4,246 nt of DNA from a virus. Taxonomy: Duplodnaviria > Heunggongvirae > Uroviricota > Caudoviricetes. The notes beneath the pieces are model-generated. The model ran no database searches. It was not told the DNA's origin and was given only the letters and a program-made list of their open reading frames with translations. Below are positions 1 to 4,246 of the stretch, one piece after another (the stretch's first letter is position 1; each line of letters opens with the position of its first letter). The position numbers were made by a program, and so were the translations under genes. Location of the stretch: IMG/VR virus record IMGVR_UViG_2645727970_000009; one strand, written 5' to 3'.

Positions 1-105
1 TAGGATAGCCAACCATCAGATGCTGCATTTGCATAGTGCAATCTCCCCTTACTTATCCGGAGGCAATTGCAATATCTCTGTGAACTTACACAGGAGAAGC
101 AGGCT

Positions 106-261
106 ATGAAGCAGCAAAAGGCGATGTTAATCGCCCTGATCGTCATCTGTTTAACCGTCATAGTGACGGCACTGGTAACGAGGAAAGACCTCTGCGAGGT
201 ACGAATCCGAACCGGCCAGACGGAGGTCGCTGTCTTCACAGCTTACGAACCTGAGGAGTAA
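106..261 (+). CDS. hokD: Hok/Gef-family type I toxin, 51 aa small membrane peptide
   Basis: ATG at 106 preceded by AGGAG (92-96); translation MKQQKAMLIALIVICLTVIVTALVTRKDLCEVRIRTGQTEVAVFTAYEPEE matches from memory the Hok/RelF family (single TM helix, conserved C-terminal Cys and Glu-rich tail); stop TAA 259-261. The track ORF 67..261 is the same frame extended to an upstream TTG. Confidence 0.9.
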   Translation: MKQQKAMLIALIVICLTVIVTALVTRKDLCEVRIRTGQTEVAVFTAYEPEE

Positions 262-268
262 GAGACCC

Positions 269-290
269 GGCGAGGGAGAAATCCCTCGCC
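269..290 (+). promoter_or_regulatory. Perfect 8-bp stem-loop (GGCGAGGG-agaaat-CCCTCGCC) in hok 3' UTR; candidate mRNA fold-back/stability element
   Basis: Inverted repeat read directly from sequence 8 nt after the hok stop; hok-family mRNAs are known to carry structured 3' elements (fbi) that pair with the 5' end. The 5' partner lies outside the window so pairing cannot be confirmed. Confidence 0.4.
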
Positions 291-330
291 ACCTCTGATG
301 TGGCAGGCATCCTCAACGCACCCGCACTTA

Positions 331-356
331 ACCCGCTTCGGCGGGTTTTTGTTTTT
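331..356 (+). terminator. Rho-independent terminator of the hok transcript
   Basis: ACCCGC-ttcg-GCGGGT hairpin (GC stem, 4-nt loop) followed by TTTTTGTTTTTATTTT. Confidence 0.7.
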
Positions 357-369
357 ATTTTCAACGCGT

Positions 370-399
370 TTGAAGTTCTGGACGGTGCCGGAATAGAAT
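370..399 (+). promoter_or_regulatory. Putative sigma70 promoter upstream of the rem-like gene
   Basis: TTGAAG (370-375), 18-bp spacer, TAGAAT (394-399), located downstream of the hok terminator and ~80 nt upstream of the rem start. Sequence-pattern call only. Confidence 0.3.
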
Positions 400-477
400 C
401 AAAAATACTTAAGTAGCGCGCAGGGATAAGAGGGATGGTCCCTTAAAGGGGAGAGCTAATTATCCGGAAGGATTCTG

Positions 478-729
478 ATGATGAACATCGAAGAACTGCG
501 TAAAATTTTTTGTGAAGATGGCCTCTATGCTGTGTGCGTTGAAAATGGAAATCTTGTTAGTCATTACCGCATTATGTGTTTGCGAAAGAATGGGGCTGCG
601 TTAATTAATTTTGTGGATGGTCGAGTGACAGACGGATTTATCTTGCGCGAAGGTGAGTTTGTCACTTCATTACAGGCACTGAAAGAGATCGGAATAAAAG
701 CAGGCTTTTCAGCTTTTGCAGAAGAATAA
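478..729 (+). CDS. rem: Rem-like small prophage protein (83 aa), function unknown
   Basis: ORF of 83 aa with GGAAG Shine-Dalgarno 8 nt upstream; the length and the gene order hok - 83-aa gene - DUF968 gene match the hokD-rem-ydfU arrangement of the E. coli K-12 Qin prophage as I recall it. Identity is from synteny and length, not verified alignment. Confidence 0.6.
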   Translation: MMNIEELRKIFCEDGLYAVCVENGNLVSHYRIMCLRKNGAALINFVDGRVTDGFILREGEFVTSLQALKEIGIKAGFSAFAEE

Positions 730-795
730 ACTCATCTACAATCTTGCGCGGGGCTGAACTCCCGCTGAGTAACACCGTGCCACCGGAGAAAACCG

Positions 796-1074
796 ATGGC
801 ACGCAACGTAAAATATTACAATTCTGATAATTCGCCCGTTCTTGTCTGCACGCACGAGCGGTATTCTCACGCATTCAAGTCTGAATGGTTCCAACACCCT
901 CCATGCACTGAAGAGCAGGCTGAATGGATAATTCAGTGTTACCGCAGGCGCGGATACGAGGTTAAGAAAGCCCTTAGCCTCGACTACCGTCACTGGATAA
1001 TCTCAGTCAGATTGCCTTACTCCGAACGCCCACCACGTGCGTCCCGCACTTTCCAGCAACGGATCTGGAGGTAA
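796..1074 (+). CDS. Hypothetical Cys/His-rich protein (92 aa)
   Basis: ATG at 796 with GGAGA Shine-Dalgarno (785-789, 6-nt spacer); stop TAA 1072-1074 sits inside a GGAGGTAACGTG arrangement that positions the next gene's start 1 nt downstream (translational coupling). Contains several Cys and His residues in the first 50 aa (possible metal site). No recognised family. Confidence 0.5.
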   Translation: MARNVKYYNSDNSPVLVCTHERYSHAFKSEWFQHPPCTEEQAEWIIQCYRRRGYEVKKALSLDYRHWIISVRLPYSERPPRASRTFQQRIWR

Positions 1075-1075
1075 C

Positions 1076-2125
1076 GTGCGGGTATTACTTAGACCTGTTC
1101 TGGTGCCTGAGCTTGGGCTGGTGGTCCTTAAGCCGGGCCGTGAATCCATACAGATATTTCATAATCCTCGAGTGCTGGTGGAACCGGAACCAAAAAGCAT
1201 GCGTAATCTGCCATCCGGAGTCGTTCCTGCCGTTCGCCAGCCGCTGGCGGAAGACAAAACATTGCTGCCGTTTTTTAGTAACGAACGGGTGATTCGTGCT
1301 GCTGGCGGTGTTGGCGCATTGTCTGACTGGCTATTACGTCATGTTACATCCTGCCAGTGGCCTAATGGCGATTACCATCACTCTGAAACAGTCATTCACC
1401 GTTATGGTACCGGCGCAATGGTGTTGTGTTGGCACTGCGACAACCAACTGCGTGACCAGACATCGGAATCACTGGAGCTGCTTGTTCAACAAAATCTGAC
1501 AGCATGGGTGATTGACGTCATCCGTCACGCAATAAGCGGTACGCAGGAGCGGGAATTATCTTTGGCTGAATTATCCTGGTGGGCGGTCTGCAATCAGGTG
1601 GTGGATGAACTACCTGAGGCTGTATCGCGTCGTTCGCTGGGATTACCAGCGGAAAAAATCTGCTCGGTGTACCGCGAAAGCGACATCGTACCGGGAGAGC
1701 AGACCGCCACCAGCATATTGAAACAACGCACAAAAAATCTTGCACCGTTGCCTTACGCCCACCAGCAACAAAAAACACCACAGGAAAAGACGGTGGTAAG
1801 CATCACCGTTGATCCGGAGTCTCCGGAATCCTTCATGAAACGACCTAAACGTCGCCGCTGGGTAAATGAGAAATACACACGCTGGGTAAAGACACAGCCG
1901 TGTGCGTGTTGTGGTAAGCCAGCGGACGATCCTCATCATCTGATTGGTCATGGTCAGGGTGGAATGGGAACAAAATCCCACGATATTTTCACGCTACCGC
2001 TGTGTCGGGAGCATCACAACGAGCTTCATGCGGATCCGCTGGCGTTCGAAGAAAAGCATGGTTCCCAGGTTGATTTAATTTTTCGTTTTCTTGATCACGC
2101 TTTTGCAACCGGCGTGCTCGGGTAA
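1076..2125 (+). CDS. ydfU: YdfU-like DUF968 protein (349 aa from GTG 1076) with C-terminal Cys/His HNH-like motif
   Basis: Long ORF, frame open from 1037; GTG at 1076 is preferred as the start because GGAGG (1067-1071) precedes it and it gives 349 aa, the length I recall for K-12 YdfU. C-terminus CACCGKPADDPHHLIGHG...LCREHHNELH resembles HNH / NinG(Rap)-type metal-binding nuclease motifs. Start is uncertain (alternatives GTG 1037, ATG 1199). Confidence 0.65.
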   Translation: MRVLLRPVLVPELGLVVLKPGRESIQIFHNPRVLVEPEPKSMRNLPSGVVPAVRQPLAEDKTLLPFFSNERVIRAAGGVGALSDWLLRHVTSCQWPNGDYHHSETVIHRYGTGAMVLCWHCDNQLRDQTSESLELLVQQNLTAWVIDVIRHAISGTQERELSLAELSWWAVCNQVVDELPEAVSRRSLGLPAEKICSVYRESDIVPGEQTATSILKQRTKNLAPLPYAHQQQKTPQEKTVVSITVDPESPESFMKRPKRRRWVNEKYTRWVKTQPCACCGKPADDPHHLIGHGQGGMGTKSHDIFTLPLCREHHNELHADPLAFEEKHGSQVDLIFRFLDHAFATGVLG

Positions 2126-2137
2126 AAGAGGTTACTG

Positions 2138-2512
2138 ATGCGTATAGAGTTTGTTTTGCTTTACCCGCCGACGGTGAACACCTACTGGCGACGTCGTGGC
2201 AGCACATATTTTGTATCAAAAGCCGGTGAGCGTTATCGCCGGGCTGTGGCGCTTATTGTTCGCCAGCAGCGGCTGAAATTAAGCCTGTCCGGAAGGCTGG
2301 CGATAAAGATTATTGCCGAGCCACCGGATAAGCGCCGCCGTGACCTGGACAATATTCTGAAAGCGCCGCTGGATGCGCTGACACATGCGGGGTTGCTAAT
2401 GGACGATGAGCAGTTTGATGAAATCAATATCGTTCGTGCTCAGCCAGTATCTGGTGGACGTCTGGGGGTGAAGATTTACCCCATAATGCTTGAAGGGCAG
2501 GTCAAAAAATGA
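2138..2512 (+). CDS. rusA: RusA-family Holliday junction resolvase (124 aa)
   Basis: AAGAGG Shine-Dalgarno 6 nt upstream of ATG 2138; translation contains LLYPPTVNTYW and the acidic catalytic cluster PDKRRRDLDN...LMDDEQ that parallels E. coli RusA (PDRRRRDLDN...LDDAQ, from memory); conserved position immediately upstream of Q as in lambdoid nin regions. Confidence 0.85.
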   Translation: MRIEFVLLYPPTVNTYWRRRGSTYFVSKAGERYRRAVALIVRQQRLKLSLSGRLAIKIIAEPPDKRRRDLDNILKAPLDALTHAGLLMDDEQFDEINIVRAQPVSGGRLGVKIYPIMLEGQVKK

Positions 2513-3330
2513 AACTGGAAGATTTACCGAAATACTACTCCCCAAAATCCCCCGGCCTGACTGATGCATCGGCCTCAACGTCGAAAGATACGCTGAGTAT
2601 CACTGATGTGATGGCCGCGCAGGGCATGACACAGAATTGGGCTGAGATGGGGTTTTCTGCGTTCCTTGGGAAAATGGGCATTAGTATGAATGACAGAGAG
2701 CGGGCAACAGAATTGCTGACAGAATATGCACTCAGTCGGTGTGATCGCGTGGCGGCGTTAAGAAAACTCCCGGCAGAAATAAAACCGGCAGTGATGCGTA
2801 TTATGGCTTCGTATGCGTTTGAAGATTATGCCCGTAGCGCGGCGAGCAAAAAACAGTGCCCCTGTTGTCACGGAAAAAAATTTATTGAAAGCGAGGTTTT
2901 TACAAACAAGATCCAGTATCCGGATGGTAAGCCGCCAGTGTGGGCAAAGTGCACAAAAGGCGTGTATCCGTCTTACTGGGAGGAATGGAAAAAAGTTAGG
3001 GAGGTGGTAAAAGTTGCCTGTCCGGAGTGTGGAGGGAAGGGGGAGGTTTCCACCGCCTGTAAAGATTGTCGTGGGCGCGGTGTTGCCATTCATCGTGAAG
3101 AGTCGGTAAAACGTGGTATGCCTGTTATCAGAGACTGCCAGCGTTGTGGTGGTCGTGGCTATGAAAGATTACCTTCAACGGAGGCATTTAATGCCATATG
3201 TAATGTAACCGATGCCATATCTCTTGATACATGGAAAAAAACAGTTAAACGTTTTTACGATACGCTGGTGGTGCAGTTTGATATTGAAGAAGCATGGGCA
3301 GAACAACAACTGAAAAAGGTGACCAGATAG
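2509..3330 (+). CDS. Q: Lambda-Q-family late-gene antiterminator (273 aa) with expanded Cys-rich zinc-binding region
   Basis: ATG 2509 overlaps the rusA stop (ATGA). N-terminus MKLEDLPKYYSPKSP...TDVMAAQGM, central ASYAFEDYARSAA, and C-terminus TWKKTVKRFYDTLVVQ...KKVTR parallel lambda Q (MRLESVAKFHSPKSP..., ATFAYADYCRSAA, TWSRTVKPLYDALVVQ...NAVTR, recalled). Followed immediately by a pR'/qut-like site and terminator. Confidence 0.85.
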   Translation: MKLEDLPKYYSPKSPGLTDASASTSKDTLSITDVMAAQGMTQNWAEMGFSAFLGKMGISMNDRERATELLTEYALSRCDRVAALRKLPAEIKPAVMRIMASYAFEDYARSAASKKQCPCCHGKKFIESEVFTNKIQYPDGKPPVWAKCTKGVYPSYWEEWKKVREVVKVACPECGGKGEVSTACKDCRGRGVAIHREESVKRGMPVIRDCQRCGGRGYERLPSTEAFNAICNVTDAISLDTWKKTVKRFYDTLVVQFDIEEAWAEQQLKKVTR

Positions 3331-3497: not shown

Positions 3498-3930
3498 GCT
3501 GGCTTTTTCGACAAGAGTTATTGGTGTGTCACGTTAACCGGAAAAAGGAAAGTTTGAGAAACGCGATCTGGCACAGGCGGTGATTAACGCCGCATACCTG
3601 GTGGCCTGTGCAGATGGTGAATGTGAGGCTTCCTAGAAAGCGAAGATCGAACAGGTACTGCGTAATCAGCCAGCGCTGTCCGCGTTTACGTCAGAAATTA
3701 ATGCGATTAGCGCAACCATTATCGGTCAGCTGGATACGAACTTTAAAACTGGTCGTCGTGCGGCGTTACGTGAGATCGAGGATGTGAAACACGATACGCG
3801 TGAAGCGGAAGATGTGCTGGATGTGGCGGTGGCCATTGCGGAGGCAGACGGCGAAATTGAGCCGGAAGAGCGCAAGGTGCTGGAAGAGATTGCCGGTGTT
3901 CTGGGGCTTCGTCTGGAGAATCACCTGTGA
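3498..3930 (+). pseudogene. TerB-family (tellurite-resistance TerB-like) gene remnant with nonsense and frame lesions
   Basis: Frame 1 from 3538 reads PEKGKFEKRDLAQAVINAAYLVACADGECEAS*KAKIEQVL...VAIAEADGEIEPEERKVLEEIAGVLGLRLENHL*, showing the paired ADG-x-acidic motifs of TerB (recalled ...VASDGVSSEEKQKM... and ...AKSDGNFDDDEKSAVREIARSLG...). In-frame TAG at 3634-3636 sits where TerB has Glu. No in-frame start exists upstream (TAA at 3535-3537); a possible N-terminal piece (GFFDKS, frame 3) ends at TGA 3555-3557, consistent with a +1 indel in the A5 run 3542-3546. 5' boundary is approximate. Confidence 0.5.
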
Positions 3931-4094
3931 CGGTAAAACTGCGCCTGGCTGTGGCTGCACTCCTGCTGTTTCTGGTGGTGATGGTGGATTTCACCAGCAG
4001 AATCATGTCGGTGCTGGCGGATGGGGGGCTGGTCTGCGGCATTGTGGTATTGCTGTGGCCGGTGATAAAAAGAAACAGCCTGCATAATGCTTGA
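3927..4094 (+). CDS. Hypothetical small hydrophobic protein (55 aa from GTG; 37 aa if ATG 3981), probable two-helix membrane peptide
   Basis: GTG 3927 overlaps the TerB-like stop (GTGA) with GGAGA (3915-3919) 7 nt upstream; translation VTVKLRLAVAALLLFLVVMVDFTSRIMSVLADGGLVCGIVVLLWPVIKRNSLHNA has two hydrophobic stretches; stop TGA 4092-4094 followed by a T7 run. Not in the ORF track because it is shorter than 60 aa. Confidence 0.35.
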   Translation: MTVKLRLAVAALLLFLVVMVDFTSRIMSVLADGGLVCGIVVLLWPVIKRNSLHNA

Positions 4095-4150
4095 TTTTTT
4101 TGTTTACTGTTTATTAAAAATACTACTGCATGGTGAATCCCCCTGTGCGG

Positions 4151-4169
4151 CTGTCTCTTGATCAGATCT
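4151..4169. repeat. Terminal inverted repeat of the IS (IS50 IE-type 19-mer)
   Basis: Exact 19/19 match to the recalled IS50 inside-end sequence; contains two GATC Dam sites. Confidence 0.7.
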
Positions 4170-4183
4170 CCTGATCAAGAGAC
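4153..4183. repeat. Perfect 13-5-13 palindrome (GTCTCTTGATCAG-atctc-CTGATCAAGAGAC) carrying three GATC sites
   Basis: Read directly from sequence; arms are exact reverse complements; overlaps the IS terminal repeat and the last codons of the transposase. Confidence 0.9.
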
Positions 4184-4246
4184 TTCATCACCAGGTAACC
4201 CTCAACCATATCCTGAAGTCTGAACCAGCCATCCCACATGACGACC
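4162..4246 (-). CDS. Transposase C-terminal fragment (IS50/Tn5 Tnp-like), partial, 28 codons in window
   Basis: Minus-strand translation ...VVMWDGWFRLQDMVEGYLVMKSLDQEI* resembles the Tn5 transposase C-terminus (...ALWEGWEALQSKLDGFLAAKDLMAQGIKI*, recalled); stop is the reverse complement of TCA at 4162-4164. Confidence 0.6.
   Translation of the reverse strand, partial: VVMWDGWFRLQDMVEGYLVMKSLDQEI

Follow-up and report, generated by a model that had tools for sequence, protein, structure and literature searches.

Within the IS4 family, ISEc13 belongs to the IS50 subgroup and is an autonomous insertion sequence of the cut-and-paste type; it is named, widespread and already known, and was first annotated in EPEC O127:H6 E2348/69. 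A paper that names ISEc13 uses it solely as a gene-map label, and none of the titles and abstracts listed for the literature on it deals with its mechanism or target. In ISfinder, two elements are regarded as the same IS at >95% amino acid or >90% nucleotide identity. IS4-family transposases are characterized by DDE residues with the spacing D(60-110)D(100-150)E and by the YREK signature Y(2)R(3)E(6)K; for the IS50 subgroup, the definition includes a size of 1350-1550 bp, ends that begin with 5'-CT and follow the consensus CW------Y---CA-A--W-, and direct repeats of 8-9 bp (PMC2266710). The sequences of the Tn5 outside end (OE), CTGACTCTTATACACAAGT, and of the engineered hyperactive mosaic end, CTGTCTCTTATACACATCT, are those given in PMC2566895; the OE reference was drawn from the literature, since the IS50 copy of the plasmid used for comparison (L013) is an IS50L without outside end.

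The window analyzed here is the whole stretch of 4,246 nucleotides from the IMG/VR record IMGVR_UViG_2645727970_000009. Its last 96 bases (4151-4246) are, almost certainly, the inside-end side of an ISEc13 copy that transposed into a lambdoid E. coli prophage, at a small site flanked by pyrimidines and purines in its late region. As a kind of object, nothing in the window is new; an annotation should record positions 4151-4246 as one end of ISEc13 within a lambdoid prophage. The features at and around this end are as follows.

4138-4142, plus strand: pyrimidine arm TCCCC of the target motif, according to the statistics of 39 non-redundant flanks
4143-4150, plus strand: target sequence CTGTGCGG, an 8-bp direct repeat in an IMG/VR contig with the whole insertion (L018/L015); the empty site in the prophage L002 has one copy
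4151-4169, plus strand: 19-bp terminal inverted repeat of the inside-end (IE) type, CTGTCTCTTGATCAGATCT, identical to the IS50 IE and fitting the IS50-subgroup end consensus
4151-4246, minus strand: terminal 96 bp of an ISEc13 copy, IE-type side, running off the window; 95/96 nucleotides identical to E2348/69 and many other E. coli
4153-4183, no strand: perfect palindrome with 13-bp arms, GTCTCTTGATCAG and CTGATCAAGAGAC, and a 5-nt loop; the outer arm corresponds to repeat positions 3-15
4160-4163, 4165-4168 and 4173-4176, no strand: three GATC (Dam) sites, the first two at repeat positions 10-13 and 15-18
4162-4246, minus strand: 3' end of the transposase gene, comprising the last 27 codons and the TGA at 4164-4162, equal to residues 431-457 of the 457-aa ISEc13 transposase

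The ISEc13 end in the window

The terminal 96 bp differ from ISEc13 in a single base, a synonymous G for T at 4243. Used as a query, they find matches in 2464 of the 5426 complete E. coli genomes, at up to 99% identity, and at 30 places in the chromosome of EPEC O127:H6 E2348/69. The feature underlying these matches is annotated as 'IS4-like element ISEc13 family transposase', and an identical protein was named 'transposase of ISEc13' by the authors of the E2348/69 genome. Near-identity to the E2348/69 copies amounts to 95/96 nucleotides and 27/27 amino acids, a comparison that covers the 96 bp only. The minus-strand frame 4245-4162 translates into VVMWDGWFRLQDMVEGYLVMKSLDQEI followed by the stop; this TGA (4164-4162) occupies positions 12-14 of the repeat, and the stop codon of the IS50 transposase is found at the equivalent spot in its own repeat, just as the original prediction had stated. 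Within the window, no second match to CTGTCTCTTGATCAGATCT exists at up to three mismatches, and 0 out of 200 shuffles gave a match.

An end of this kind could also stem from an insertion of Tn5/IS50 itself, either natural or introduced by laboratory mutagenesis or a vector. All 19 bases of CTGTCTCTTGATCAGATCT are those with which the IS50L copy adjoining aph(3')-IIa begins on plasmid NZ_CP024153.1, which bears out the earlier claim of an exact IS50 inside end; at this end, ISEc13 and IS50 are identical (19/19). Directly after the 19-mer, however, the window reads TCCTGATCAAGAGAC, whereas IS50 reads TGATCCCCTGCGCC; the IS50L copy, which begins CTGTCTCTTGATCAGATCTTGATCCCC, parts from the window at precisely this point. 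The encoded C-terminal 27 amino acids are just 37% identical to those of Tn5 (10/27 in a global alignment, and not about half, as estimated before). Furthermore, nucleotide similarity between ISEc13 and IS50 is limited to the terminal ~25 bp and to stretches of 37 and 75 bp, and ISEc13 matches the 96 bp at 99% identity. We therefore consider a Tn5/IS50 insertion extremely improbable; the sequence past 4169 rules it out. The original prediction of an IS50-group relative distinct from Tn5 was right, and the 99% identity of the 96 bp to ISEc13 copies gives this relative its name.

The IS50 material used for comparison deserves a short description of its own. A 121-nt IS50 inside-end query matched 243 records of the plasmid collection, 231 of them at an identity of at least 99%. 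In NZ_CP024153.1 (L013, 2501-4000), the IS50L with its ochre codon adjoins aph(3')-IIa, which confers the kanamycin resistance of Tn5. The Tn5 outside-end sequence was found neither at the expected position nor elsewhere in this locus, which identifies it as what is left of a Tn5; the plasmid, a multiresistance plasmid, contains IS26 and an IS91-family element as well. The Pantoea ananatis plasmid NZ_CP022428.1 includes 16 separate IS50 inside-end matches, unusually many for a record of 34.6 kb.

The three clustered GATC sites that had been noted are present within 17 bp. Over the whole window, GATC occurs at chance frequency (15 observed vs 14.8 expected); hence, the triple at 4160-4176 represents a local cluster. 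The positions of the first two sites within the repeat equal those in the IS50 IE, and the third lies 4 bp further in. As in the Dam-regulated IS ends of IS50 (IE) and IS10, GATC is thus located within the transposase-binding end.

The palindrome at 4153-4183 was also seen in the ISEc13 copy of E2348/69. At the OE-type end of the element there is likewise a perfect hairpin, with an 11-bp stem that includes part of the terminal repeat (L018 1348-1373). RNA folding gave -29.4 and -28.0 kcal/mol, with z = -4.9 and -6.3, and the two end hairpins fold far better than shuffles. A T-run is absent after either of them, so they are not classical terminators.

Insertion site and target preference

The part of the window from 67 to 3330 is a typical lambdoid nin/late-regulator region with the following genes.

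67-261: hok/mok-type toxin ORF
796-1074: 92-aa ORF
1037-2125: DUF968 protein
2138-2512: RusA resolvase
2509-3330: Q antiterminator

Upstream of a DUF3927 gene, a TerB-family gene (3608-3930) is apparently split into two ORFs, 3608-3787 and 3784-3930; its counterpart in L002 is a RefSeq pseudogene with an internal stop. In Rfam and tRNA scans of the window, no Rfam family and no tRNA gene reached the threshold.

The boundary of the element is sharp. In a megablast search of 3900-4246 against the 5426 complete E. coli genomes, O55:H7/O157-type prophages match at 100%, all of them ending at 4150, and the best match to a phage record stops at the same position. The uninterrupted prophage L002 continues across the site (...CCCCCTGTGCGGTGGGGCAATCAG...) and possesses a single copy of CTGTGCGG. 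Contigs encoding the neighbouring DUF3927 protein contain uninterrupted prophages at 10/10 places among the matches listed. The insertion is located downstream of the DUF3927 gene, between this gene and the position at which related prophages carry a SASA-family esterase gene.

These comparisons bear on the idea that the palindrome is native to the prophage, a regulatory element or terminator with a chance resemblance to an IS end. Its perfect 13-bp stem and its site between late-region genes would suit such an element; but related prophages without it are continuous across the site, and the sequence runs on as a transposase gene. The probability of a native element is accordingly negligible, and the empty site in L002 rules it out.

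Searches of the 5426 complete E. coli genomes, of species-representative genomes and of metagenome contigs did not recover the exact junction between prophage and ISEc13; the species-representative genomes also lacked the far-end junction expected for a repeat of 8 or 9 bp. Among the collections searched, only IMG/VR contains the window's junction, in four contigs. In the contig IMGVR_UViG_643348548_000006 (L015/L018), this junction belongs to an entire element of 1550 bp, and CTGTGCGG recurs past the far end; in the orientation of the window, L018 reads ...GGTGAATCCCCCTGTGCGG / CTGTCTC...GAGACAG / CTGTGCGGAGGGGCAATCAG..., with slashes at the borders of the element. Because the whole insertion is flanked by CTGTGCGG on both sides, the target duplication is 8 bp long, which replaces the 9-bp duplication CCTGTGCGG (4142-4150) proposed originally.

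In the IMG/VR contigs that have this junction (L014-L018), the prophage upstream of ~4109-4125 consists of a different module, which in L018 holds a 229-aa ORF unlike the Q gene of the window. The combination of different upstream modules with the same junction indicates that the site is a hot spot for insertion or that mosaic prophages have exchanged an old insertion.

The duplications flanking ISEc13 measure 8 bp at five sites (including L018, L001, L021/L023 and L025) and 9 bp at two (L022, L048). Matching direct repeats are absent in three of nine distinct full-length copies (L019, L020, L035), pointing to recombination among the copies or to deletions beside them. Such rearrangement could have produced the end seen here as well: the window stops 96 bp into the element, and what remains could be a truncated or rearranged remnant, either a solo end or a copy that recombined with another one and thereby lost its far side. 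However, the L018 element with the same junction is intact over its 1550 bp and flanked by the 8-bp repeat, and the 96 bp carry one change only, a synonymous one; we regard a remnant as unlikely. The ISEc13 copy of the window is thus probably complete, in which case ~1454 more ISEc13 bases would follow past 4246, ending ...ATTTGTGTATAAGAGACAG; next would come CTGTGCGG and then the sequence that precedes the esterase gene.

The choice of target was analyzed with 109 ISEc13 end flanks from IMG/VR, metagenome and genome loci, which were collapsed to 39 non-redundant ones. These flanks reveal a symmetric target motif, 5'-CCYCY-N8(9)-RGRGG-3': in 27 out of 39, every base from +9 to +13, counted outward from either end, is a purine (RGRGG), compared with ~1-2 out of 39 at distant offsets. 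The window displays the pyrimidine arm TCCCC, and its purine counterpart, AGGGG, stands after the repeat at the far end in L018 (site coordinates 1316-1335 and 2886-2905). Many ISEc13 sites are small hairpins or terminator-like palindromes; the satP-mog intergenic site of E2348/69, for instance, is palindromic and reads ATCCCCCC-GAGC-GGGGGGAT in the orientation of the transposase. The target preference may direct ISEc13 to terminator loops and small hairpins rather than to genes.

The full element and its proposed transposition

Full-length copies of ISEc13 were obtained from E2348/69 (L001) and from IMG/VR and metagenome contigs. Their length is 1550 bp in L001, L015/L018 and L019-L023, and 1551, 1539 and 1545 bp in L025, L035 and L048, respectively. 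The element spans from the IE-type repeat CTGTCTCTTGATCAGATCT to the OE-type repeat CTGTCTCTTATACACAAAT (L018 1336-1354, corresponding to L001 4032-4050 on the reverse strand) and contains a single 457-aa transposase ORF without frameshift. Full ISEc13 copies therefore show what had been anticipated beyond the window, namely a transposase of the DDE type and another terminal repeat. The size of ISEc13 agrees with the range of the IS50 subgroup; CTGTCTCTTGATCAGATCT, in the window, and CTGTCTCTTATACACAAAT both start with 5'-CT and fit the subgroup consensus. The direct repeats of the ISEc13 copies have the expected 8-9 bp, the window showing one end only.

The transposase is 39% identical to that of Tn5 according to BLASTP (480 columns, E = 2e-95) and 42% identical in a global alignment; it also matches the Tn5 transposase structures in the PDB (E = 7e-83). 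Two Pfam domains, Tnp_DNA_bind (70 bits) and DDE_Tnp_1, are matched, while Dimer_Tnp_Tn5 scores 24.1 bits, slightly below the cut-off of 26.7; the NCBIfam model transpos_IS4_3 reaches 511.6 bits (cut-off 160). Homology to the IS50R transposase, by which the subgroup is recognized, extends over the full length and includes the N-terminal DNA-binding and the C-terminal dimerisation domains. D93, D193 and E323 align with D97, D188 and E326 of Tn5, and Y316, R319, K330 and W295 with Y319, R322, K333 and W298. The spacing of the DDE residues in the reference copies L001 and L018 is that of the IS4 family, the window itself holding the last 27 codons only; Y316, R319, E323 and K330 form the YREK signature.

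Based on homology to Tn5/IS50, the 457-aa transposase would bind both 19-bp ends, the IE-type CTGTCTCTTGATCAGATCT and the OE-type CTGTCTCTTATACACAAAT. A transposase dimer would then form the synaptic complex, and the DDE/YREK residues would excise the element through a hairpin intermediate; integration would probably proceed with an 8-bp, sometimes 9-bp, staggered cut. This scheme draws on the Tn5 mechanism and on knowledge of the IS4 family (PMC2266710, PMC2566895, PMC3347997).

Dam control of ISEc13 transposition is plausible, because two GATC sites are equally placed in a 19-mer identical to that of IS50. Yin, Krebs and Reznikoff (1988, reference 4 of PMC3347997) reportedly observed that Dam methylation depresses the use of the IS50 inside end, an effect that is established for Tn5/IS50. 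In ISEc13, the transposase probably binds less well when the GATC pair in the IE-type end is fully methylated; transposition would then be coupled to the passage of the replication fork. Since transposition of a single IS invariably involves one IE-type end, control by Dam of every ISEc13 event appears to be the most likely form of regulation. Another GATC is located at element position 130, 36 bp ahead of the transposase ATG. At the position of the Tn5 inhibitor (Inh) start, a start codon is absent in ISEc13, which has Q52 and then V53 (GTT); hence, regulation of ISEc13 need not copy that of IS50. A simple strict scan of the element revealed no sigma-70 promoter, a second point against a plain transfer of the IS50 model.

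Comparison with Tn5, IS50 and IS231A

Some properties of ISEc13 may have escaped description until now. Tentatively, and with rather less than even confidence, we propose as such its symmetric target preference, its terminal hairpins and ends so Tn5-like that the two systems might mobilise each other's ends. In the searchable literature, no description of the target motif, the hairpins or the mosaic-end likeness of ISEc13 was found. Cross-mobilisation, if true, would be relevant to Tn5 mutagenesis in E. coli that carry ISEc13. The wider value of these observations is modest: Tn5-type ends stay nearly unchanged despite the divergence of the transposases to ~40% identity. The apparent choice of symmetric targets flanked by pyrimidines and purines, and a natural outer end that resembles the engineered mosaic end, are of similarly modest value.

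ISEc13 and IS50R/Tn5 have a common gene layout, in which the transposase reads from the OE to the IE and stops inside the repeat. The DDE and YREK residues and the equivalent of W298 are kept in ISEc13 as in Tn5. The OE-type end CTGTCTCTTATACACAAAT equals the Tn5 OE at 17/19 positions, with the TTATACACA core kept, and it shares its first 16 bases with the mosaic end.

The differences from IS50R/Tn5 are equally clear. The transposase of ISEc13 has 457 aa, that of Tn5 476 aa, and their identity is 39-42%; the duplications are mostly 8 bp in ISEc13 but 9 bp in Tn5. ISEc13 further differs in its strong symmetric target motif and in its end hairpins, with stems of 13 bp (IE) and 11 bp (OE), whereas the IS50 IE has only a 5-bp version of the hairpin. 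Finally, ISEc13 occurs as a single IS, and Tn5 is a composite resistance transposon with IS50 arms.

With respect to the target, ISEc13 resembles IS231A, another member of the IS4 family, whose target is GGG(N)5CCC. As in ISEc13, this target is palindromic and G/C-rich, and its arms flank the duplicated core. IS231A differs from ISEc13 in that it belongs to another subgroup, has 5'-CAT ends and generates duplications of 10-12 bp (PMC2266710, in which its insertion specificity is also cited).
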